From sequence record OZ335957.1: a stretch of 40,153 nucleotides of DNA; one strand, 5' to 3'. Below the pieces are notes generated by a model. The model saw nothing but the letters and a program-made list of their open reading frames with translations, was not told the DNA's origin and did no database searches. Made by a program: the position numbers and the translations under genes. This DNA comes from a phage. Below, piece after piece: positions 5,151 to 39,707 of the stretch (within the stretch, counting starts at the first letter, position 1; each line of letters opens with the position of its first letter).

Positions 5151-7832
5151 ATGAGCGTCATCTCTATTGATAAACACGACTTCTCTGATGTGTCTAACGC
5201 CATTGAGCCGTTTAACCTGCTGGCTGACCACTACGGGCAAGACCTTGCAGTCAAACAGCTTCAGCTTGAGCATGAGGCCTACACTGAAGGCGAGCGACGT
5301 TTCATCAAGAACCTTGAGCGTCAGACCGAGCGAGGGGAACTGGCAGACAATCAGGTCGCCAAGCCTTTGATGCAGACTCTGGTTCCTAAGATTGCGCAAG
5401 CCGTCAAGGAGTGGCACGAAGGTCCAGACGGGAAGCTGTCAACCTCACGTCCGAGCGTAGCGTTCACCATGTTAAGCACTGAAGAGAAGGCCGTCAAGGA
5501 CCGCTCTCTTCGCATCTCCTGCGAGTCTGCTGCGGTTATCATACTGAAGGTCATCCTCTCCAAGCTGGTCAAGCCTGAAGGTATACCGATTACACCGATG
5601 GCCTCCGCGATAGGTCGCACACTTGAGGATGAAATCCGATTCGGTCGCATTCGTGACAAGGAGAAGGAGCACTTCAAGAAGGCGATAGCTGATAACCTGA
5701 ACAAGAGAGCCGGGGCATCATACAAGAAAGCCTACATGCAAGCGGTCGAGACATCCATGCTGGAGCAAGGCCAACTAGAAGATGCGTGGGGAACTTGGAG
5801 TCCGACCGAGGCTGTCCACGTTGGAATCAAGATGCTGGAGATTGTCATACAGTCAACACAACTGGTCGAGCTTAAGCGTTACGGTGCTGGCAATGCAACG
5901 GCTGACGTTGAGATGGTCCACCTGTCAGACTTCTGGGTCAAGAAGATGGCACAACGCGGCTTCAGCCTTGCGGGTATCGCTCCAGTCTACCAACCTTGCG
6001 TAGTTCCACCTAAGCCGTGGACTGGTGTCGTAGGCGGTGGGTACTGGGCCAAAGGTCGCAGACCATTACCACTGATTCGCTTAGGGTCTAAGTCTGCGGT
6101 GGCACGTTACGAAGACGTGTATATGCCTGAAGTCTATGACGCTGTTAACATCATCCAGAATACACCTTGGAAAGTGAACAAGAAGGTTCTGGACGTGGTG
6201 AACATGGTCGAGAAGTTGAACAACACGCCTATTGATGACATCCCTCAGATGGAGCCACTGAAGCCTGAAGAATATGCGGGTGAGACTGAAGAGGAACTCA
6301 AGGCGTGGAAGAAAGCGGCTGCTGGTATCTATCGCCGCGAGAAGGCCAGACAGTCACGCAGATTGTCGCTGAGCTTTATCGTTAACCAAGCGAACAAGTT
6401 CTCTCAGTTCAAGGCCATCTGGTTCCCGTACAACATGGACTGGCGCGGTCGCGTCTACGCTGTGCCGATGTTCAACCCTCAGGGTAACGACATGCAAAAG
6501 GGTCTACTGACTCTGGCAGTCGGTAAGCCTATTGGTGCTGATGGTTTCAAATGGCTGAAGGTCCACGGTGCAAACTGTGCGGGTGTCGATAAAGTCACCT
6601 TCGAGGAGCGCATCAAGTGGGTGGAAGACAACCACGACAACATCATGGCTGCTGCTAAGGCACCGATGGATAGCATTGAGTGGTGGGGCAAGTTAGACTC
6701 TCCTTTCTGCTTCCTTGCGTTCTGCTTCGAGTATGCTGGCGTGATGCACCACGGATTGTCTTACTCCTGCTCGCTGCCGATAGCTTTCGATGGGTCCTGC
6801 TCTGGGATTCAGCACTTCAGCGCTATGCTTCGTGACCACATCGGTGGACATGCAGTAAACCTGACGCCTTCCGGTAAGGTCCAAGACATCTACCGCATCG
6901 TTTCTGACCGCATTGAGGAAGAGCTTAAAGTCCTGCTGGTTAACGGCACGGACAACGAGATGGTAACTCACGAGGACAAGAAAACTGGTGAGATTACCGA
7001 GCGTCTCAAGCTGGGGACACGAGAGCTGGCCCGTCAGTGGCTGACCTACGGTATGTCACGCAAGGTTACTAAGCGCTCAGTCATGACTCTGGCCTACGGG
7101 TCGAAAGAGTACGGCTTCGCAGACCAAGTTTACGAGGACATCGTGATGCCCGCGATTGACTCAGGGTCTGGCGCTATGTTCACTGAACCAAGCCAAGCAT
7201 CTCGCTTCATGGCTAAGATGATTTGGGAAGCTGTGAGTGTGACCGTAGTTGCTGCGGTTGACGCGATGAAATGGCTTCAGGGTGCTGCCAAGCTGCTGGC
7301 GGCTGAAGTGAAGGACAAGAAGACTGGCGAAATCCTGAAGCCTTGCCTTCCGGTACACTGGGTCACACCTGATGGGTTCCCGGTCTGGCAGGAATACCGC
7401 AAGAAGGATACCACTCGTCTGAATCTGATGTTCTTAGGGTCATTCAACCTTCAGCCTACCGTCAACAAAGGCACGAAGAAAGAGCTGGATAAGCACAAGC
7501 AGGAGTCAGGCATTAGCCCGAACTTCGTCCACTCACAAGATGGTAGCCACCTCCGCAAGACTGTAGTCCACACGCATCGCAAGTATGGCGTGATGTCATT
7601 CGCAGTGATTCATGATAGCTTCGGGACAATCCCGGCTGACGCTGAATATCTGTTCCGTGGTGTCCGTGAGACGATGGTCGAGACCTACCGCGACAACGAT
7701 GTGCTGCTTGACTTCTACGAGCAGTTTGAATACCAGCTTCACGAGAGCCAGCGCAATAAGTTGCCAGAGCTTCCGAAGAAAGGTAAACTGAATATCGAAG
7801 ACATCTTGTCTTCAGACTTTGCATTCGCTTAA
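5151..7832 (+). CDS. 1: Single-subunit DNA-directed RNA polymerase (T7 gp1-like)
   Basis: 893 aa; collinear with T7 RNAP: PFNLLADHYG, CVVPPKPWTG, WFPYNMDWRGRVYAV, FCFLAFCFEY, IHDSFGT, C-terminal FAFA. Confidence 0.98.
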   Translation: MSVISIDKHDFSDVSNAIEPFNLLADHYGQDLAVKQLQLEHEAYTEGERRFIKNLERQTERGELADNQVAKPLMQTLVPKIAQAVKEWHEGPDGKLSTSRPSVAFTMLSTEEKAVKDRSLRISCESAAVIILKVILSKLVKPEGIPITPMASAIGRTLEDEIRFGRIRDKEKEHFKKAIADNLNKRAGASYKKAYMQAVETSMLEQGQLEDAWGTWSPTEAVHVGIKMLEIVIQSTQLVELKRYGAGNATADVEMVHLSDFWVKKMAQRGFSLAGIAPVYQPCVVPPKPWTGVVGGGYWAKGRRPLPLIRLGSKSAVARYEDVYMPEVYDAVNIIQNTPWKVNKKVLDVVNMVEKLNNTPIDDIPQMEPLKPEEYAGETEEELKAWKKAAAGIYRREKARQSRRLSLSFIVNQANKFSQFKAIWFPYNMDWRGRVYAVPMFNPQGNDMQKGLLTLAVGKPIGADGFKWLKVHGANCAGVDKVTFEERIKWVEDNHDNIMAAAKAPMDSIEWWGKLDSPFCFLAFCFEYAGVMHHGLSYSCSLPIAFDGSCSGIQHFSAMLRDHIGGHAVNLTPSGKVQDIYRIVSDRIEEELKVLLVNGTDNEMVTHEDKKTGEITERLKLGTRELARQWLTYGMSRKVTKRSVMTLAYGSKEYGFADQVYEDIVMPAIDSGSGAMFTEPSQASRFMAKMIWEAVSVTVVAAVDAMKWLQGAAKLLAAEVKDKKTGEILKPCLPVHWVTPDGFPVWQEYRKKDTTRLNLMFLGSFNLQPTVNKGTKKELDKHKQESGISPNFVHSQDGSHLRKTVVHTHRKYGVMSFAVIHDSFGTIPADAEYLFRGVRETMVETYRDNDVLLDFYEQFEYQLHESQRNKLPELPKKGKLNIEDILSSDFAFA

Positions 7833-8136: not shown

Positions 8137-8159
8137 CCTAAACTATCACTATAGGATTA
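8137..8159 (+). promoter_or_regulatory. Phage RNAP promoter (phi1.1-like position), +1 G at 8154
   Basis: CCTAAACTATCACTATA GGATTA. Confidence 0.8.
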
Positions 8160-8200
8160 GACTCAAGGTCATGACTCAAAGTCGTGGCCTTCATGATTAA
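8158..8200 (+). promoter_or_regulatory. Conserved hairpin element, copy 1 (RNase III site-like, R1.1 position)
   Basis: TAGACTCAAGGTCAT..GTGGCCTTCATGATTA; stem AAGGTCA/TGGCCTT conserved in three copies (8158, 15524, 39611). Confidence 0.4.
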
Positions 8201-8232
8201 CCCTAAATAAACACTACTGGAGATTTAACCGT

Positions 8233-9720: not shown

Positions 9721-9731
9721 CTAAATGTCAA

Positions 9732-9768
9732 CCCAGTGGTCTTAGGACTGCTGGGTTTCTTTGCTTTG
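9732..9768 (+). terminator. Intrinsic terminator after ligase gene (T7 TE-like position)
   Basis: 10-bp stem CCCAGTGGTC/GACTGCTGGG (two G-U pairs), loop TTAG, followed by TTTCTTTGCTTTG. Confidence 0.5.
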
Positions 9769-9803
9769 TGCTAGCAAGCTATCGTCTGGGCCACCAGCTC
9801 GAC

Positions 9804-10111: not shown

Positions 10112-10544
10112 GGTGGGGGATACAGTTGAATATGTTGGACCAGTTGAAGCCTACACGGGACGCTCCTGTGGCAAGGTGATAGTGGTTAAGAATGAGCATG
10201 TAGCTGTTGTTAAGTGGCCCGGTTTATCTGAACCACTCAGTCACTCCATTAGCTCCTTAAGTATTACCAATCAGGCTCAGTCCGAGCCGACAACCATAGA
10301 TCAGGGAGATAGCGTCCGTAAGCCGTCGTACTATCAGGTCTTTGACGGTGTGGAATCCATTGAGATTATCGCCAGGTCCATGACTGTCAGTGAGTTCCGT
10401 GGTTTCTGCATGGGTAACGTCCTGAAGTATCGACTCCGAGCTGGTAAGAAGTCCGAGCTGGCGACTATGGAGAAGGACATGGCGAAAGCTGAGTTCTATG
10501 GTGAACTTTACGAGAAACATAAGGACAAGTGTTATGACGCGTGA
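10104..10544 (+). CDS. Hypothetical protein (146 aa), gene 1.7 position; possibly DUF3310-type
   Basis: Position; C-terminal SYYQVF..IEII..MTVSEFRGFCMGNVLKYRLRAGKK pattern is tentatively recalled as DUF3310-like. Confidence 0.55.
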   Translation: MVKVGDTVEYVGPVEAYTGRSCGKVIVVKNEHVAVVKWPGLSEPLSHSISSLSITNQAQSEPTTIDQGDSVRKPSYYQVFDGVESIEIIARSMTVSEFRGFCMGNVLKYRLRAGKKSELATMEKDMAKAEFYGELYEKHKDKCYDA

Positions 10545-11007: not shown

Positions 11008-11025
11008 ACTATCACTGTAGGACAG
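11003..11025 (+). promoter_or_regulatory. Phage RNAP promoter variant (CACTGTAGG), +1 G at 11020
   Basis: CCTAAACTATCACTGTA GGACAG; one mismatch at -3; overlaps gp2 stop codon. Confidence 0.6.
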
Positions 11026-11065: not shown

Positions 11066-11758
11066 ATGGCTAAAGAGCAACTGAAGACTTTCACCACTCC
11101 GGTAGCTGGTATCGTTGAGCCTTACGCATGGCTGAACAAAGCAGACACCAAGTTTAACGAGCGTGGTGAGCATAAGGTTAACCTGACATTCGACCTGAAC
11201 GACCAGAAGGTCCGTAAGATGATTGATGTCTTACAGAAGATTCACGACGATGCGTATGCGAAAGCACTTGCAGACCACGAGAAGAACCCACCTCAGGTTC
11301 AGCGTGGCAAGAAGCCTATTGAACCACGAGAAGGCGACATGCCGTGGATTGAGAATGGTGACGGTACTGTTACCATGAAGTTTAAATGCTTCGCGTCTTA
11401 CCTGAAGGATGGTAAGTCAGAGCCTATCGTATTACGGTTCTACGACACCGATGCTAAGTTAATCCGTGACGTCCCGAATATCGGCGCTGGCTCAAAGCTG
11501 AAGGTCAAGTTTAAAGTCCTGCCGTTCAAGTGGAACGCTGCGACTGGTGCAAGCGTTAAGCTACAGCTTGAGTCATGCCTTCTGGTAGAACTGAAGGAGT
11601 GGAAAGGTGATGGTGGCGATGGTGGCTGGGGTGAGGATGAAGACCTCGGTACTGGTTACAAAGCGTCAACTGATGGTGACTTCGGGTCTGATGACTTCGG
11701 TGACGATGGTTCCGAAGGTGGTGACGACTCTGGCTCTGGTGGCGATTACGACTTCTAA
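11066..11758 (+). CDS. 2.5: Single-stranded DNA-binding protein (T7 gp2.5-like)
   Basis: 230 aa, Gly/Asp-rich acidic tail ending DYDF as in T7 gp2.5. Confidence 0.92.
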   Translation: MAKEQLKTFTTPVAGIVEPYAWLNKADTKFNERGEHKVNLTFDLNDQKVRKMIDVLQKIHDDAYAKALADHEKNPPQVQRGKKPIEPREGDMPWIENGDGTVTMKFKCFASYLKDGKSEPIVLRFYDTDAKLIRDVPNIGAGSKLKVKFKVLPFKWNAATGASVKLQLESCLLVELKEWKGDGGDGGWGEDEDLGTGYKASTDGDFGSDDFGDDGSEGGDDSGSGGDYDF

Positions 11759-12210
11759 TGGCCCAATGGTCTGCAAAACGGGGGCACTCTGTGGGTGCCT
11801 ACCGCTCTGGACTTGAAGCCAAGAACCAGCAGTGGCTGGAACAGAACGGCGTCAAAGCGGAGTACGAAAGCCATTATATCAACTATGTGATTCCGGCTTC
11901 CGACCACAAGTACACACCAGATTTTATCCTTCCCAACGGTATCATCGTGGAGACCAAAGGTATCTTCGATAGTGATGACCGTAAGAAGCACCTTCTGGTA
12001 CGAGAACAGCACCCAGAGTTAGACATCCGGTTCGTGTTCTCAAGTTCCCGCTCCAAGTTATACAAAGGGTCTCCGACCACGTATGGCGCATGGTGCGAAA
12101 AGAACGGCTTTAAATTTGCCGATAAATTCATCCCGGTTGAGTGGCTGCGAGAGGCGACTGTACGTCTGCCTTCAGGTATACTCATCCCCAAGAAGAAAGG
12201 AGTTAAGTGA
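11758..12210 (+). CDS. 3: Endonuclease I, Holliday-junction resolvase (T7 gp3-like)
   Basis: YVIPASDHKYTPDF, ETKG, DDRKKHLLVREQHPELDIRFVFSSSRSKLYKGSPTTYG matches T7 endo I. Confidence 0.93.
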   Translation: MAQWSAKRGHSVGAYRSGLEAKNQQWLEQNGVKAEYESHYINYVIPASDHKYTPDFILPNGIIVETKGIFDSDDRKKHLLVREQHPELDIRFVFSSSRSKLYKGSPTTYGAWCEKNGFKFADKFIPVEWLREATVRLPSGILIPKKKGVK

Positions 12211-12665
12211 TGACTACCTGTAAAGACCTTGAAGTTGGAACACGTTACAGATTCTCAAAGAACACCCTGTTGAATAACCCCAGCTTCACTGATGCTGTTT
12301 TCGAAAAGCGAGAAGACCATAGCGTAATTGTGGAGAAGGGGTGGCATCCTGAGGATTATATCGGTGAGACTACCAGCTGGAATGGTCACGAGACCTACAG
12401 TGTAGAAGTTGTTGACCAGCCTCAAGTCCTGCCAGCTTCGAGCGTACCTCCTGTGACTGTGAAGCGTGAAGTCCTGACAATCGACAAGATTGGTGTAGGC
12501 CAGACGTTCATCGTCCATGGAAAGCCTGAAGAAGTTTACGTGAAGATTAGCAACTCACACGTCTTCAACCATAAGCGTCTCCAGATGCACACCACGGACG
12601 CACAACGCTTCACCCAGCACCTGAATCTAGTGGTCGTAGAATTGGTGGTGTACAATGGTAAGTAA
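12207..12665 (+). CDS. Hypothetical protein (152 aa) inserted between endonuclease I and lysozyme genes
   Basis: ORF coupled to both neighbours (overlapping start/stop); no T7 counterpart at this position; no motif recognised. Confidence 0.6.
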   Translation: MMTTCKDLEVGTRYRFSKNTLLNNPSFTDAVFEKREDHSVIVEKGWHPEDYIGETTSWNGHETYSVEVVDQPQVLPASSVPPVTVKREVLTIDKIGVGQTFIVHGKPEEVYVKISNSHVFNHKRLQMHTTDAQRFTQHLNLVVVELVVYNGK

Positions 12666-13113
12666 GGTACAGTTCAACCCACGGTCCCGGACTGACGCTA
12701 TCTTCGTTCACTGTTCGGCTACCAAGCCAGAGATGGACATCGGGGTAGAGACCATCCGTATGTGGCACAAGCAGCAAGGCTGGCTGGACGTAGGCTACCA
12801 CTTTATCATCAAGCGCGATGGTACTGTGGAAGAGGGTCGCCCGGTAAACGTCGTAGGGTCACACGTTAAGGACTGGAACTCACGGTCTGTAGGCGTCTGC
12901 CTTGTAGGTGGAATTGACGCTAAGGGCAAGTTTGAAGCTAACTTCACTCCTGACCAGATGAACTCCCTACGCAACAAGCTGGCTGACCTGAAGTCCCTGT
13001 ATCCTCAGGCAGAAATCAAAGCACATCATGATGTAGCACCAAAGGCGTGTCCAAGTTTCGACTTACAGCGCTGGCTGTCTATTAATGAGCTGGTCACTTC
13101 CGACCACGGTTAA
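12655..13113 (+). CDS. 3.5: Lysozyme / N-acetylmuramoyl-L-alanine amidase (T7 gp3.5-like)
   Basis: DAIFVHCSATKP, WLDVGYHFIIKRDGTVEEGR, HHDVAPKACPSFDL, NELVTSD match T7 lysozyme. Confidence 0.95.
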   Translation: MVSKVQFNPRSRTDAIFVHCSATKPEMDIGVETIRMWHKQQGWLDVGYHFIIKRDGTVEEGRPVNVVGSHVKDWNSRSVGVCLVGGIDAKGKFEANFTPDQMNSLRNKLADLKSLYPQAEIKAHHDVAPKACPSFDLQRWLSINELVTSDHG

Positions 13114-13137
13114 TAAACTCTAAAGGAGAATAACTTA

Positions 13138-13353
13138 ATGATTAAACTTATCGAATTTCTAGGTCGTCTGGTGGTGCGTGGTTATCGTCGTGCTGCGGTA
13201 CTGGAACGAAAGGTAGAAAAGAAGACTGCTGATGGCGCGGCTGATGCGGCTGCTCTGGCTGACAAGCTAACCATCGCGTCACTGGAAGCTGGCATGAAGG
13301 CTCGTCAGGCTGATACCAAAGCTGACCAGTTGGCTCAGTTCTTCAAAGACTAA
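13138..13353 (+). CDS. Hypothetical protein (71 aa)
   Basis: RBS AAAGGAG; Ala-rich helical sequence. Confidence 0.5.
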   Translation: MIKLIEFLGRLVVRGYRRAAVLERKVEKKTADGAADAAALADKLTIASLEAGMKARQADTKADQLAQFFKD

Positions 13354-13391
13354 ACTATCACCTTAGGGATGGGACCATGAGTCCTGTCCCT
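13349..13391 (+). promoter_or_regulatory. Degenerate promoter-like sequence overlapping an 11-bp-stem hairpin (R3.8-like)
   Basis: ACTAAACTATCACCTTAGGG (CTTA replaces TATA at -4..-1); hairpin AGGGATGGGAC-CATGA-GTCCTGTCCCT at 13365-13391. Confidence 0.35.
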
Positions 13392-13421
13392 TTGTTCGCA
13401 TTTGTGACTAAGGAGTGACCG

Positions 13422-13601
13422 ATGGTTACAGTTATTCTAGTTCTAACGCTTATCAGTGGTAGTGGGCAAACTATCAGCCAAGTACCTATAACAGCACCAA
13501 CATTACAGGACGCATTCACAATATGTGACCAGTCCGGCTCAAAGTGGGCCGACAAGTTTGGCGATGTCTCAAACGTTGCAGCAGGGTATGAGTGTATTTA
13601 A
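13422..13601 (+). CDS. Hypothetical small protein (59 aa) with signal-peptide-like N-terminus
   Basis: RBS TAAGGAGTGACC identical to that of the primase gene; MVTVILVLTLISGSG hydrophobic N-terminus. Confidence 0.4.
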   Translation: MVTVILVLTLISGSGQTISQVPITAPTLQDAFTICDQSGSKWADKFGDVSNVAAGYECI

Positions 13602-13608
13602 GGAGTGA

Positions 13609-15312
<1,704 letters not shown>

Positions 15313-15355
15313 TCGGGACATCGCTGACTATAAGAATTTTTACGGAGGACCGTTA

Positions 15356-15520
15356 GTGTTAAAGAAACTTAAAGCTCGATATCACATGTTCATGTACAAA
15401 TGGTGGAGCGATGAAGCAACCTGCCTGTCGAACATTCTGGGAGACCAGCGGTTCAACTCTGAGGCATGGAAGAAAGCTAACCGGAAGTTCATGTATCACT
15501 TCTTGCGTACAGACTTCTAG
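15356..15520 (+). CDS. Hypothetical small protein (54 aa, GTG start)
   Basis: GGAGG 7 nt upstream of GTG; 3' part of ORF-track frame 15041..15520 lying downstream of primase stop. Confidence 0.3.
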   Translation: MLKKLKARYHMFMYKWWSDEATCLSNILGDQRFNSEAWKKANRKFMYHFLRTDF

Positions 15521-15523
15521 GTC

Positions 15524-15566
15524 TAGACTCAAGGTCATTCATAGCGAGTGGCCTTTATGATTAGAC
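15524..15566 (+). promoter_or_regulatory. Conserved hairpin element, copy 2 (RNase III site-like, R4.7 position)
   Basis: TAGACTCAAGGTCATTCATAGCGAGTGGCCTTTATGATTAGACT. Confidence 0.4.
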
Positions 15567-15584
15567 TAAAGCGGAGGATTAACC

Positions 15585-17756
15585 ATGTTTGACCTTAAGA
15601 GTATCTGGGGTTCTGACATCGAGACCAACGGTCTCCTTGATACAGTCTCCCAGTTTCACTGTGGGGTCCTGATTAACGCCGAGTCGAATGAGACCCTTAA
15701 GTATGGGGTAGCTCCGATGGTCGGTATCGTCGGCGGCTTCAAAGAGTATGTTCATAAAGTGGAAGAGATTGCAGCATCACCTGATGGTATGCTGGTATTC
15801 CATAACGGTATCAACTATGACGTCCCGGCTATAGACAAGCTGAAGCGTTTGTACTTTGGGAAACGCTTTAACTTCCCGAAACATAAGATGATTGATACCT
15901 TGGTGCTGGGACGCTTGATGTATCCAAACATTAAGTTCTCAGACATGGGCGCAGTGAAAGCTGGTCGTCTGCCACCTAAGATGATGGGACGCCAGTCTCT
16001 TGAGGCTTGGGGCTATCGTCTCGGTGAGATGAAAGGTGAGTACAAACACGATTACGTTGCCAAGTGCAAGGCTGAAGGTATCGAATATAAGGCTGGGGAC
16101 GAATGGTTGTTCCCGTCTCAGGAGATGCTGGACTATAACGTTCAAGACGTTGTGGTCACACTGGCGTTGTTCAAGAAGTTCCTGACTGACAAGTATTACT
16201 TCCAGTCTGAACAGTTCGCTTTCGACCAGATTTATGCGTTGCGTCTGGAACATGATGCTGCGTGGACCTGTGCGAAGATGGAGCGTAACGGCTATCCGAT
16301 GAACACCGAGATGGTCGAAGGCTTATATCGTGAACTCACTGTCAAACGTGCAGAGTTGCTGGACAAGCTGCGTTCGACTTTCGGTAGCTGGTACGCACCA
16401 AAGGGAGGCAAGGAGTTCTTCAGGCATCCACGGACAGGTAAGGACCTTCCGAAGTATCCGAGGGTCGTGTATCCTAAGGTCGGTGGCATCTTTAAGAAGC
16501 CGAAGAACAAAGCTCAACGCTTAGGTCTTGAACCTTGTGAACGCGATACGCGAGACACGATGGAAGGAGCACCATTCACGCCAATCACTTACGTTGAGTT
16601 TAATCCGGGAAGCGGAGACCACTTAGCGAAAGTCCTGATGGAGCGTGGCTGGGAGCCTGTTGACTTCACTGACACCGGGAAACCTGTAGTCGATGACGAG
16701 ACGTTGGAACACGTTAAGTTACCAGACGCAGAGGCTCAGGCTTGTGTAGAGCTGGTCCGTGAGTATCTGGTAGTCCAGAAGCGCATCGGGCAGGCTGCTG
16801 AAGGTAAGAACGCATGGTTGAAACTTGTAGGTCCAGACGGACGTATGCACGGTTCAATCAACCCTTGTGGAGCAGTAACCGGACGTGCGACCCATAGTTC
16901 ACCAAACATGGCTCAGGTCCCGGCTAACGGTGCTCCATACGGTGAGACTTGCCGTGGTGCTTTCGGTGCAGCGTGGAACAAGAAGGACGGTAAGCCAGAC
17001 CCTTGGATTCAAGTAGGTGTGGACGCTTCAGGTCTTGAGCTTCGTTGTCTGGGGAACCGAGCGGCTCCGTTTGATGGTGGAGACTATGCGAAGACTGTGG
17101 TCGAAGGGGACATCCACTGGGCCAACGCAGTAAACGCTGGGTTAGCACCTAACGTCCCACGCGATAAGTCGAACCATGACCATGATGCTTTCCGTAACAA
17201 CGCTAAGACGTTCATCTATGCGTTCCTGTATGGTGCAGGGGCCGCTAAGATTGGACTGATAGTTGGCGGTGGTAAGAAGGAAGGTGCTACCCTGATGAAG
17301 AAATTCATTGAGGGTACACCAGCTATTAAAGACCTCAGGGAAGCTGTGAGTAATACGTTAATCTCCGAATCCAAATGGGTAGATGGAGAGAACATCGTGA
17401 AGTGGAAACGTCGCTGGCTGAAAGGTCTGGATGGTCGCCGTATCCACATCCGGTCTCCACACTCAGCACTAAACGCATTACTTCAAGGCGATGGTGCGGT
17501 TGTCTGTAAGCACTGGATTGTAGAGACTGAACGTATGCTTGAAGAGGCAGGGTATGTTCACGGCTGGGAGGGAGACTTCGCGTACATGGCCTGGGTTCAC
17601 GACGAATTGCAGATTGCGTGCCGTACTCAGGAGATTGCCGAAGAAGTCGTCAAGATTGCTCAACTTGCTATGCGTAAGGTGGGTGAGTTCTATAACTTTA
17701 AATGTGTCCTTGATACCGAAGGTAAGATTGGACCAACGTGGAAGGAGTGCCATTGA
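15585..17756 (+). CDS. 5: DNA polymerase (T7 gp5-like, family A) with 3'-5' exonuclease domain
   Basis: 723 aa; SDIETNGL (exo I), FHNG.NYDVPA, GSWY.PKGG, KTFIYAFLYGAG (motif B), WVHDELQ (motif C) collinear with T7 gp5. Confidence 0.98.
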   Translation: MFDLKSIWGSDIETNGLLDTVSQFHCGVLINAESNETLKYGVAPMVGIVGGFKEYVHKVEEIAASPDGMLVFHNGINYDVPAIDKLKRLYFGKRFNFPKHKMIDTLVLGRLMYPNIKFSDMGAVKAGRLPPKMMGRQSLEAWGYRLGEMKGEYKHDYVAKCKAEGIEYKAGDEWLFPSQEMLDYNVQDVVVTLALFKKFLTDKYYFQSEQFAFDQIYALRLEHDAAWTCAKMERNGYPMNTEMVEGLYRELTVKRAELLDKLRSTFGSWYAPKGGKEFFRHPRTGKDLPKYPRVVYPKVGGIFKKPKNKAQRLGLEPCERDTRDTMEGAPFTPITYVEFNPGSGDHLAKVLMERGWEPVDFTDTGKPVVDDETLEHVKLPDAEAQACVELVREYLVVQKRIGQAAEGKNAWLKLVGPDGRMHGSINPCGAVTGRATHSSPNMAQVPANGAPYGETCRGAFGAAWNKKDGKPDPWIQVGVDASGLELRCLGNRAAPFDGGDYAKTVVEGDIHWANAVNAGLAPNVPRDKSNHDHDAFRNNAKTFIYAFLYGAGAAKIGLIVGGGKKEGATLMKKFIEGTPAIKDLREAVSNTLISESKWVDGENIVKWKRRWLKGLDGRRIHIRSPHSALNALLQGDGAVVCKHWIVETERMLEEAGYVHGWEGDFAYMAWVHDELQIACRTQEIAEEVVKIAQLAMRKVGEFYNFKCVLDTEGKIGPTWKECH

Positions 17757-19873: not shown

Positions 19874-19934
19874 TTAGGACCTAAGATATGACTATAAGAT
19901 AGACTTTAGTCTTAACTTAAAGAGGAGATTCAAG

Positions 19935-23688: not shown

Positions 23689-23711
23689 ACTAAACTATCA
23701 CTATAGGGAGA
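23689..23711 (+). promoter_or_regulatory. Phage RNAP promoter (phi10-like, best consensus match), +1 G at 23706
   Basis: ACTAAACTATCACTATA GGGAGA; immediately upstream of capsid gene. Confidence 0.85.
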
Positions 23712-23814
23712 CCAAGAGACAGACTCAAGGTTTCCCCTATTACTTCAGTCCATACGGATTGGGCGTACAGTAAGTAATAAACTTTATCTTTCAATTGAAT
23801 AGGAGAATTATCAT

Positions 23815-35822: not shown

Positions 35823-38800
35823 ATGTCCACGATTACACAATTCCCTTCAGGAAACACTCAGTACAGGATTGAGTTCGACTACCTAGCCAGAACGTTTGTT
35901 GTTGTTACGCTGGTGAATAACTCTAACCCTACCCTGAACCGTGTACTGGAAGTTGGTCGAGATTATCGATTCCTTAATCCAACGATGATTGAGATGTTGG
36001 TTGACCAATCAGGTTTCGACATCGTTCGCATTCACCGTCAGACTGGAACTGACTTAGTGGTAGACTTCAGGAATGGCTCAGTGTTGACGGCTAGTGACCT
36101 GACAAATTCAGAGCTTCAGGCTATCCATATTGCAGAAGAAGGTCGAGACCAAACGGTTGACTTAGCGAAGGAATATGCCGATGCTGCTGGTAGCTCTGCT
36201 GGCAACGCTAAGGATAGCGAGGACGAAGCACGCCGAATCGCTGAGAGTATCAGGGAAGCTGGTCTAATTGGCTATATGACCCGTCGCTCCTTCGAGAAAG
36301 GCTACAACGTTACAACATGGAGCGAGGTCCTGCTATGGGAAGAGGATGGTGATTATTACCGCTGGGATGGTACGCTTCCAAAGAACGTTCCTGCTGGTTC
36401 AACTCCTGAAACTTCCGGTGGGATTGGATTAGGTGCGTGGGTTAGTGTTGGTGATGCTGCTTTAAGAAGTCAGATTTCAAACCCGGAAGGGGCAATACTC
36501 TACCCTGAATTACATAGAGCACGCTGGCTTGATGAAAATGATGTTCGTGGTTGGGGTGCTAAAGGGGATGGTGTCACTGATGATACAGCAGCGTTAACGA
36601 GCGCATTAAACGACATACCGGTTGGACAAAAGATTAATGGCAATGGGAAGACATATAAGGTCACATCCCTGCCTGACATTAGTCGCTTCATCAACACTCG
36701 TTTCGTTTATGAGCGCATTCCCGGACAACCTCTTTATTATGCCTCTGAAGAATTTGTTCAGGGTGAGTTGTTCAAAATAACGGACACCCCTTATTACAAT
36801 GCGTGGCCTCAGGATAAAGCGTTCGTATATGATAATGTGATATATGCACCTTACATGGGTAGCGATCGTCATGGTGTTAGTCGTCTGCATGTGTCATGGG
36901 TTAAGTCTGGTGATGATGGTCAAACATGGTCTACTCCAGAGTGGCTAACTGATCTGCATCCAGATTACCCTACAGTGAACTATCACTGTATGAGTATGGG
37001 TGTATGTCGCAACCGTCTGTTTGCCATGATTGAAACACGTACTTTAGCCAATAACGCATTAACCAATTGTGCATTGTGGGATCGCCCCATGTCTCGTAGC
37101 CTGCATCTTACTGGTGGTATCACTAAAGCTGCAAATCAGCGATATGCAACAATACATGTACCAGACCACGGACTATTCGTGGGTGATTTTGTTAACTTCT
37201 CTAATTCTGCGGTAACAGGTGTATCCGGTGATATGACTGTTGCAACCGTAATAGATAAGGACAACTTCACGGTTCTTACACCCAACCAGCAGACTTCAGA
37301 TTTGAATAACGCTGGAAAGAATTGGCACATGGGTACTTCTTTCCATAAGTCTCCATGGCGTAAGACAGACCTTGGTCTAATCCCTCGTGTCACAGAGGTG
37401 CATAGCTTTGCTACTATTGATAACAATGGCTTTGTTATGGGCTATCATCAAGGCGATGTAGCTCCACGCGAAGTTGGGCTTTTCTACTTCCCTGATGCTT
37501 TCAATAGCCCATCTAGTTATGTTCGTCGTCAGATACCATCTGAGTATGAACCAGATGCGTCAGAGCCGTGCATCAAGTACTATGACGGTGTATTATACCT
37601 TATCACTCGTGGCACTCGTGGGGATAGACTAGGTAGCTCTTTGCATCGTAGTAGAGACATAGGTCAGACTTGGGAGTCACTGAGATTTCCACATAATGTT
37701 CATCATACTACATTACCTTTTGCTAAAGTAGGGGATGACCTTATTATGTTTGGTTCAGAACGTGCAGAAAATGAATGGGAAGCAGGTGCACCAGATGATA
37801 GGTACAAGGCATCTTATCCTCGCACCTTCTATGCACGCTTGAATGTAAACAATTGGAATGCAGATGATATTGAATGGGTTAACATCACTGACCAGATTTA
37901 TCAGGGCGGAATAGTTAACTCAGGTGTAGGTGTTGGTTCGGTAGTTGTGAAGGATAATTACATCTACTACATGTTTGGTGGAGAGGACCATTTTAACCCA
38001 TGGACATATGGAGATAACTCAGCGAGGGACCCATTCAAATCAGATGGTCATCCCTCAGATTTGTATTGCTACAAAATGAAGATTGGCCCAAGCAATCATG
38101 TTTCCCGTGATTTCAGGTATGGTGCTGTACCTAACAGAGCTGTTCCCGTGTTTTTTGATACGAATGGGATTCGCACTGTTCCTGCGCCAATGGAATTTAC
38201 AGGGGATTTGGGTTTAGGTCATGTGACCATTAGAGCCAGCACCAGTAGTAACATTCGCTCTGAAGTTTTAATGGAAGGTGAATATGGGTTTATCGGGAAA
38301 TCTATACCGACTGATAACCCGGCAGGGCAGCGCACCATATTTTGCGGGGGTGAAGGCACCAGTTCAACGACTGGCGCACAGATTACGCTTCATGGTGCAA
38401 ATAGCACCGACTCAAGGCGAATAGTTTACAATGGTGATGAGCATCTGTTCCAGACTGCTGACGTTAAGCCTTATCACGATAACGTCACTGCGCTTGGTGG
38501 ACCACGTAACCGTTTCACAACTGCATATCTCGGAAGCAACCCTATTGTTACTTCTAATGGGGAGAGGAAAACAGAGCCGGTAGTTTTTGATGATGCTTTC
38601 CTAGATGCCTGGGATGACGTTCACTACATCATGTATCAATGGTTAGACGCTGTTCAACTGAAAGGCAATGATGCTCGTATTCACTTCGGGGTTATTGCTC
38701 AGCAAATTCGTGATGTATTCATTGCACACGGTCTGATGGATGAAAACAGTACGAATTGTCGTTATGCAGTTCTGTGCTATGACAAGTATCCACGGATGAC

Positions 38801-39346: not shown

Positions 39347-39606
39347 CGCAGATGGACTTAGAGAAGTTCCTCTTGATGCTAGATACTGAACGTGCTCGAC
39401 TCATGCTGCAAGACCTGCGGGATGACACTAAGCGTTCACCTCAGCTTTACAACGCCATTGAGAAGCTACTGGCTCGTCACAACTTCGTGCTAAGCAAGGT
39501 GTCTGTAGACGAGAAGACTCTGGCTGATATGGAGGCCCTGAACGCAGAGTACGATAAGGTTCTTTCAGCGACTGAGGATAATGACACAGGGTATGGTGTT
39601 CAATAA
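39343..39606 (+). CDS. 18: Terminase small subunit (T7 gp18-like)
   Basis: 87 aa; LLMLDTERARLMLQDL...RSPQLYNAIEKLLARH matches T7 gp18. Confidence 0.88.
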   Translation: MTQMDLEKFLLMLDTERARLMLQDLRDDTKRSPQLYNAIEKLLARHNFVLSKVSVDEKTLADMEALNAEYDKVLSATEDNDTGYGVQ

Positions 39607-39610
39607 GTGT

Positions 39611-39655
39611 TAGACTCAAGGTCATTACTATATGTAGTGGCCTTTATGGTTAACA
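39611..39655 (+). promoter_or_regulatory. Conserved hairpin element, copy 3 (RNase III site-like, R18.5 position)
   Basis: TAGACTCAAGGTCATTACTATATGTAGTGGCCTTTATGGTTAAC. Confidence 0.4.
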
Positions 39656-39707
39656 CTAACTAGTGGAGGAGACTCTACGTGAAATCTGATAAACCGGGAG
39701 GGCAACT

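Follow-up and report, generated by a model that had tools for sequence, protein, structure and literature searches.

The phage genome analysed here (40,153 nucleotides, hereafter the window) carries on its + strand a promoter-like sequence fused to an RNA hairpin, located between the gene for gp3.7 and a 59-aa ORF. This element is real and conserved but ordinary: it is a K1F-type version of a known T7 element, with no new mechanism at present. With modest confidence, we consider it to be the Kayfunavirus counterpart of the T7 phi3.8 promoter/R3.8 site, that is, probably a weak class II-type promoter whose transcripts would begin with a protective 5' stem-loop, the same structure acting as a processing or 3'-stabilising signal in read-through RNA.

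Genomic context of the element

The 1.6 kb surrounding the element shared 99.7% identity with Escherichia phages Vec13 and PhiNW-B1 and about 95% with K1F and EcoDS1, and on the basis of these identities the window was assigned to the Kayfunavirus genomes (K1F-like, T7 supergroup). The functions of the local genes, all located on the + strand, were assigned by PHROG matches (Table 1). The initial annotation placed the element before the primase region; the immediate downstream gene is in fact an inserted 59-aa ORF, and the primase/helicase gene lies one gene further. This ORF belongs to a 190-bp module (13409-13614) flanked by direct repeats of the form TAAGGAGTGACC(G/A)ATG (13409-13424 and 13599-13614). 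The module is missing from K1F, EcoDS1 and ASO2B, where the promoter and hairpin directly adjoin the primase gene, and a phrog_6794 ORF is annotated with one transmembrane domain in phage Pipis. Elsewhere the same slot holds other genes, such as the gene 3.8 HNH endonuclease in T7 and others in three of the loci compared (L012, L015, L020), and it looks like a recombination hot spot exploiting the conserved ribosome-binding sequence. A weak second hairpin was also noticed in the 5' UTR (13399-13424), where CAUU (13399-13402) pairs with GAUG (13421-13424); the last three bases of GAUG are the start codon, and the Shine-Dalgarno AAGG lies in the loop. K1F and T7 show a comparable CATT...AATG complementarity, and this hairpin may be a translational element or may have arisen by chance.

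Table 1. Coordinates of the promoter-hairpin element and of its neighbourhood in the window
Feature	Position	Strand	Remarks
Canonical promoter	11008	+	TGTA at -4 to -1; nearest upstream promoter to the element
gp2.5-like SSB	11066-11758	+	PHROG match
Endonuclease I	11758-12210	+	PHROG match
gp3.2	12207-12665	+	PHROG match
Amidase/lysozyme gp3.5	12655-13113	+	PHROG match
gp3.7	13138-13353	+	phrog_1950
Stop codon TAA of gp3.7	13351-13353	+	within promoter positions -15 to -13
Promoter and hairpin element	13349-13391	+	between gp3.7 and the 59-aa ORF
Promoter-like site ACTAAACTATCACCTTA	13349-13365	+	positions -17 to -1; -17 to -5 as in the canonical promoters
Deviating bases in the unwinding region	13362-13363	+	C at -4 (consensus T), T at -3 (consensus A)
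Predicted start GGG	13366-13368	+	+1 at 13366, predicted from the promoter register; +1 of T7 phi3.8 (11180) aligns
RNA hairpin	13365-13391	+	11 bp in read-through RNA; 10 bp from the 5' end of RNA started at 13366
5' arm AGGGATGGGAC	13365-13375	+	hairpin
Loop CATGA	13376-13380	+	hairpin
3' arm GTCCTGTCCCT	13381-13391	+	hairpin
Conserved 3' flank CCCTTTGTTCGC	13388-13399	+	little or no variation across K1F-like to T7-like phages
Shine-Dalgarno and start of the 59-aa ORF, TAAGGAGTGACCGATG	13409-13424	+	16-mer recurs at 13599-13614 before the primase/helicase gene
59-aa ORF	13422-13601	+	phrog_6794; first gene served by the element
Primase/helicase	13612-15312	+	PHROG match
DNA polymerase	15585-17756	+	PHROG match

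The promoter half

The 20-mer ACTAAACTATCACCTTAGGG (13349-13368) agrees with the phage promoter consensus at all positions from -17 to +3 except -4 and -3. The sequence and coordinates first given for this site proved exact, as did the replacement of TATA by CTTA at -4 to -1, in which the actual mismatches are the C at -4 and the T at -3. The window contains 10 canonical promoters, all on the + strand, of the form (A/C)CT(A/T)A(A/G)CTATCACT(A/G)TAGG(G/A), with TATA at -4 to -1 in nine of them and TGTA in the remaining one (11008). Using a weight matrix built from these 10 promoters, the element scored 24.5 bits and ranked 11th over the whole window, below the canonical sites (32.7-35.6 bits) and above the next candidates (16.9 and 16.3 bits) and the background (<9 bits). 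Penalties were incurred only at -4 (-3.3 bits) and -3 (-3.4 bits). A search for 20-mer matches with up to three mismatches returned five, compared with none expected in shuffles. Among the lower-scoring candidates of the weight matrix, the 16.3-bit site (CCTAAGATATGACTATAAGA, 19880-19899) is a degenerate promoter-like sequence 29 nt downstream of the canonical promoter 19851, and the 16.9-bit site (AGTGAACTATCACTGTATGA, 36974-36993) carries a G at -3 and, where +1 is expected, a T.

The recognition half (-17 to -5) matches the canonical promoters of the window at 13/13 positions, including the specificity block ACTATC at -12 to -7. The T at -4 is invariant in 27 reference promoters (10/10 in the window and 17/17 annotated in T7), and the element has C instead. 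Since CTTA departs from the TATA type with T at -4, we classed the site as promoter-like, a candidate weak promoter and not a canonical one. Downstream of it, GG(G/A) is present at +1 to +3 on the + strand, in an intergenic position 56 nt before the next start codon. The weight matrix detected no further promoter-like site above 8.7 bits between 11003 and 19851, so the primase/helicase and DNA polymerase genes rely on the element or on read-through across it. A scan with the sigma-70 consensus found no host-type promoter on the + strand.

The sequence argues for a promoter half that would be weak rather than dead. Its recognition half is a perfect match of K1F type, not of T7 or T3 type as in other phage groups, suggesting that it co-evolved with the polymerase. 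In grafting experiments, the -12 to -7 block confers K1F specificity (PMC3458549). High-activity variants of the T7 promoter retain the base at -4 in 89.8% and at -3 in 81.6% of cases, compared with about 99% at -9 to -7 (PMC5937735, S1 Table), indicating that changes at -4 and -3 are better tolerated than changes in the recognition core. K1F-group relatives also have CACTTTAGG, with T at -3, at another promoter. The transcription bubble opens from -4 (PMC11053036), and a promoter with both C at -4 and T at -3 might not initiate at all. A literature search for Kayfunavirus transcriptome or transcript-mapping studies found none.

The hairpin

The 11-bp stem with a CATGA loop described by the initial annotation was confirmed, two of its pairs being mid-stem G·U wobbles, and it starts at -1/+1 of the promoter. 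The 27-mer 13365-13391 had a minimum free energy of -17.0 kcal/mol. Extended to the 33-mer 13362-13394, the fold reached -17.5 kcal/mol, with a dinucleotide-shuffle z-score of -3.4 (2/200 shuffles folded as well). Only one other 27-nt fold on the + strand of the whole 40-kb window is more stable. That fold (AACCCAGTGGTCTTAGGACTGCTGGGT, -18.2 kcal/mol) lies at 9730-9770, is followed by TTTCTTTGCTTTG and is located about 50 nt upstream of the promoter 9809; this hairpin (9730-9756) looks like the counterpart of the T7 early terminator TE.

The complementary strand of the element folded less well (-14.0 compared with -17.5 kcal/mol) because the G·U wobbles turn into A×C mismatches, and this difference between modelled folds points to a structure that would act at the RNA level on the + strand. 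At 11 bp in read-through RNA, the stem reaches the length of about one helical turn (about 11 bp) of double-stranded RNA that E. coli RNase III needs as a minimum. The T-rich stretch thought to follow the hairpin does hold some T, but it amounts only to TTTGTTCGCATTTG, with no U-run. We also considered whether CTTA is present to lengthen the stem and rejected this idea, as the consensus TATA would pair with the UUUG flank at least as well. An Rfam scan of 12800-14000 at a permissive threshold found no relevant family and returned only two chance-level snoRNA matches (E about 7-9), upstream of the element.

Relationship with T7 phi3.8/R3.8 and other T7 sites

In the T7 annotation (NC_001604), phi3.8, a weak class II promoter, occupies the same slot as the element, after the lysozyme gene and before the gene-3.8 slot and gene 4. 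The order in the window is SSB, endonuclease, gp3.2, lysozyme, gp3.7, site, primase/helicase and DNA polymerase. The T7 site reads TAATTGAACTCACTAAAGGGAGACCACAGCGGTTTCCCTTTGTTCGCATT, with the promoter +1 at 11180. Written with a slash at the transcription start, TAATTGAACTCACTAAA/GGGAGACCACAGCGGTTTCCCTTTGTTCGCATT in T7 corresponds to ACTAAACTATCACCTTA/GGGATGGGACCATGAGTCCTGTCCCTTTGTTCGCATT in the window. The two sites are homologous in sequence and structure: in both, the hairpin begins at the first transcribed base and is followed by CCCTTTGTTCGC, the -4 to -1 region is non-consensus, a central G·U is present, and the 15-nt 3' flank (CCCTTTGTTCGCATT) is identical. Moreover, a covariance model built from K-type sequences only recovered the T7 site (25.4 bits, E 1.4e-4).

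The two sites also differ in several respects. The recognition half is of K1F type (ACTAAACTATCAC) in the element and of T7 type in phi3.8. The promoter deviates at -4/-3 in the element (CTTA, including the otherwise invariant T at -4), whereas it deviates at -2 in phi3.8 (TAAA). The stem has 10-11 bp and a different sequence in the element, compared with 8 bp plus AAA/UUU in T7. A lower stem (GAAC/GUUC) forms in the minimum-energy folds of T7-type orthologues; a lower stem of this kind, extending the hairpin, was not found in K-type folds. Departure from TATA at -4 to -1 is common among T7 class II promoters, with TAAA in phi1.5, phi1.6, phi3.8, phi4c and phi4.3 and TATT in phi2.5, whereas all T7 class III promoters have TATA (T7 annotation).

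A promoter with a hairpin at +1 is found in T7 at phi3.8, phi10 and phi17, the stems of phi3.8 and phi10 being nearly identical and that of phi17 different. The stem-loop of the phi10 leader (GGGAGACCACAACGGUUUCCC, the pET-vector leader), which is known to stabilise RNA, starts at the first transcribed base as in the element. However, phi10, a strong promoter of class III, has a perfect TATA and precedes the capsid gene, whereas the element is of a weak type with CTTA. The window has its own site of this design, a canonical promoter at 23694-23740 with a hairpin (GGGAGACC...GGTTTCCCC, -15.9 kcal/mol) from +1; it is the closest analogue of the element within the genome and has the same design as the phi10 leader. 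Like the element, RNase III signals of the R1.1 type (...GACUCAAGGUC...GGCCUUUAUGAUU...) are intergenic hairpins on polycistronic phage mRNA, often shortly after a promoter, but their canonical motif and long two-stem architecture are absent at 13365.

Conservation across related phages

The element was compared with 43 IMG/VR loci, collected through the lysozyme gene, and with GenBank relatives. The three parts (promoter half, hairpin and flank) were found in almost all compared loci, and the hairpin and the CCCTTTGTTCGC flank were kept with compensatory changes in the 33 related loci tested. As MAFFT misaligned stems of unequal length across phage groups, we used per-sequence folding and a covariance-model alignment. 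The model, built from nine K-type sequences, gave exactly one match in the window and found the site in all of the 35 related loci searched, T7 among them, except L038, L040 and L043. A total of 18 distinct versions of the hairpin were observed, each folding into a single hairpin of 8-11 bp with z-scores from -3.3 to -6.4; examples of arm pairs are GGGAUGGGAC/GUCCUGUCCC, GGGAUGAGAC/GUCUUGUCCC, GGGAUGACC/GGUUGUCCC, GGGAGACC/GGUUUCCC and GGGAGGACC/GGUUUCUCCC. In the covariance-model alignment, which was fitted to the structure and holds three weak minus-strand or spurious rows, so that pair counts lean towards the structure, 96.3% of cells were paired compared with 46-61% in slid controls. Compensatory changes from G-C to A-U were seen in the stem, three pairs showed double-sided changes, and the covariation score was reached by 0/500 shuffles; given the fitted alignment and the relatedness of the sequences, we read these figures as supportive and not as proof.

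The flank CCCTTTGTTCGC is kept even where the lysozymes are only about 70% identical, and the promoter half follows the general promoter type of each group. Nowhere does the element vary more than at positions -4 to -1 of the promoter, with TAAA in T7, TATA in L042/L047, CTTA in the K1F group, CTAA in L048, TTAA in L025 and TATT in L041. All K-type relatives seen have C at -4, and all but L048 have the full CTTA; the CTAA of this Ro45lw-like locus is a 1-nt deletion variant. The sequence ACTATCACCTTAGGGATG is carried by 16 IMG/VR contigs, and roughly 220 GenBank genomes match the site. No relative with a repaired TATA was found: a 66-nt query with TATA restored reached at most 97% identity to any phage record, the shortfall being the same two mismatches, and the repaired ACTATCACTATAGGGATG had three matches in IMG/VR, all at other promoters. 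A motif scan of IMG/VR with CCCTTTGTTCGC...AAGGAG returned mostly contigs already collected and a few chance matches in unrelated large contigs.

A few loci separate the parts of the element. In the T7-promoter-type group L027-L040 (e.g. L029, 1955-2010), which has its own consensus TAATACGACTCACTA(A/T)TGGGAGA, the orthologous site reads TAATAGAACTCACTAT-GGGAGG, with a 1-nt deletion in the unwinding region and no change in the hairpin or CCCTTTGTTCGC. L038 has its hairpin 24 nt after the promoter start and not at +1. On the contig of L017/L063 (IMGVR_UViG_3300045988_000160), three promoters located elsewhere are of K1F type (CTAAACTATCACT...), and the phi3.8-type site is GW1/T3-like (AAACACTCACTAAAGGG; TTAAACACTCACTAAAGGGATGACC..., L063 about 10380-10445), mismatched at -10 and -9 with an intact hairpin. 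A good promoter is thus not required for the hairpin to persist, and this mosaic suggests that the element may travel by recombination independently of polymerase specificity.

Proposed mechanism

With its polymerase-recognition half (-17 to -5) intact, the element would act as a weak promoter of the class II kind for the phage RNA polymerase, the C at -4 and the T at -3 making melting and initiation inefficient but not impossible. We infer initiation at 13366 from the promoter register. RNA started there would open with a 10-bp 5'-terminal stem-loop and could thereby be shielded from 5'-end-dependent decay, in the manner of the T7 phi10 leader; mRNAs of E. coli and T7 are stabilised by a stem-loop placed right at their 5' end. 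Read-through RNA from upstream promoters, the nearest being that at 11008, would contain the same hairpin internally, with 11 bp, and by homology with T7 R3.8 it would be cut by RNase III of the host at about 13391-13394, close to where the stem ends on its 3' side. After such a cut, the gp2.5-lysozyme-gp3.7 message would end in the hairpin, which would protect its 3' end, and the replication genes would have a message of their own that decays separately.

Dunn and Studier reportedly placed the T7 R3.8 cut in 1983 at position 11203, in CCCUU^U, a region which we take to fall within the conserved flank CCCTTTGTTCGC. RNA-seq of T7 shows a fall in coverage lasting at least 500 bp beyond R3.8, an RNase III site located shortly past the start of phi3.8 (PMC6938266). 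The canonical T7-type RNase III motif (GACTCAAGGTC...GGCCTTTATGATTA) is absent at 13340-13430 and is present in the window at about 8160, 15526 and 39613. Because this motif is missing, the case for RNase III cleavage at the element is the homology with R3.8, which makes it plausible but not secure.

Alternative explanations

The initial annotation had offered three possibilities: a weak promoter, a decayed one turned processing or attenuation site, or the two combined. The composite reading is supported by comparative evidence, namely the phi3.8/R3.8 counterpart, the intact -17 to -5 region and the covarying hairpin. Decay finds no support in a CTTA that is fixed in every K-type genome seen except L048 or in T7 class II promoters, which also vary in this region. 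A related explanation, less probable but one that we take seriously, is that only the RNA element matters: the promoter half would be a dead relic or a polymerase-binding site, and the hairpin with CCCUUUGUUCGC would be selected as a processing or stability signal on read-through RNA. The hairpin and the 3' flank are indeed the invariant parts across Studiervirinae, in line with this explanation, as are the variability at -4 to -1 (TAAA, CTTA, CTAA, TATT, TTAA and the deletion CACTAT-GGGAG of L027-L040), the loss of a T that is otherwise invariant at -4, the non-cognate site on the L017/L063 contig and the displaced hairpin of L038. However, the recognition half of the K1F group matches the K1F-specific consensus at 13/13 positions and has thus tracked polymerase specificity, the window has no alternative promoter before genes 4 and 5, and T7 phi3.8, which carries three deviations of its own from the consensus, is accepted as an active promoter (PMC2952870). 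The opposite simplification, a promoter with a stabilising 5' hairpin similar to the phi10 leader that is not an RNase III substrate in K1F-like phages, seems unlikely to us. The hairpin at +1 is a design common to T7 phi10, T7 phi17 and the window promoter 23694, none of which is to our knowledge an RNase III site, and the K-type versions have neither the lower stem nor the canonical RNase III motif. Yet few transcripts from a weak promoter would benefit from a hairpin that is the best-conserved part of the element, L038 does not have it at +1, and a cap-like role at the 5' end leaves the strictly conserved single-stranded flank CCCUUUGUUCGC unexplained.

It is more doubtful still that the element is an intrinsic terminator or attenuator, in which the hairpin and its T-rich tail would halt some polymerases before the replication genes. 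Such a role is what the GenBank record of ASO2B conveys, annotating the orthologous hairpin as a rho-independent terminator (TransTermHP/WebGeSTer predictions), and as in rho-independent terminators of the T7 TE and Tphi types, a very stable G+C-rich hairpin (-17.0 kcal/mol) is followed by some T. The sustained drop of T7 RNA-seq coverage past the homologous site (PMC6938266) also agrees with it. Nevertheless, the tail UUUGUUCGC has only three consecutive U, short of the at least 5-6 U expected, and a terminator scan made no call; by comparison, the likely true early terminator-like site at 9730-9756 has the tail TTTCTTTGCTTTG. The T7 class II pause/termination signal ATCTGTT is also absent, as read from the sequence. 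Termination is further disfavoured by the genes downstream, as the essential primase/helicase and DNA polymerase genes have no other promoter-like site before them, and the authors of the T7 study stated that R3.8 has no terminator and ascribed the coverage drop to cleavage and decay (PMC6938266). Altogether, an efficient or true terminator is unlikely here, and partial attenuation is possible. The attenuation suggested initially, understood as termination, is disfavoured on the same grounds. The weak promoter combined with a protective and processed hairpin is thus the explanation we retain.

Significance

No other promoter-like sequence precedes the primase/helicase and DNA polymerase genes, and the amount of replication proteins is therefore probably governed by how strong the element is and by what happens to RNA that extends across the hairpin. 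Several Studiervirinae lineages seem to have altered the unwinding region of this one promoter independently, with base changes in T7, the K1F group, L041 and L025 and 1-nt deletions in L048 and L027-L040, and the recognition half, the +1 hairpin and the CCCUUUGUUCGC flank are fixed across these lineages. One could imagine that selection favours a site to which the phage polymerase binds but from which it starts transcription inefficiently, serving as a throttle, a polymerase sink or a lysozyme-sensitive valve at the entry of the replication genes, a speculation to which we attach little probability. From the sequences compared, two features would be specific to this lineage: C and T are fixed at -4 and -3, and the T7-type lower stem has been lost. 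The element leaves the current view of T7-group transcription unchallenged. The homology with T7 phi3.8/R3.8 does reconcile conflicting labels in public records, where the orthologous site is a predicted promoter in two relatives (EcoDS1 and CR44b) and a terminator in one (ASO2B). For phage engineering, where K1F serves therapy research and its polymerase/promoter pair serves synthetic biology, the element is a candidate low-strength variant of the K1F promoter that occurs naturally and brings its own stabilising hairpin at the 5' end.

Canonical RNase III motifs elsewhere in the window

Canonical RNase III motifs (AGACTCAAGGTCATTCA...GTGGCCTTTATGATTAGAC) were observed in the window at 15519-15575 and also at about 8155-8215 and 39606-39665. 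In a related locus (L059, about 6540-6620), the promoter AACTATCACTGTAGG precedes this signal. At the copy at 15526, the window lacks this promoter, and an ORF (15041-15520, phrog_5140 plus phrog_13039) extends up to the copy.
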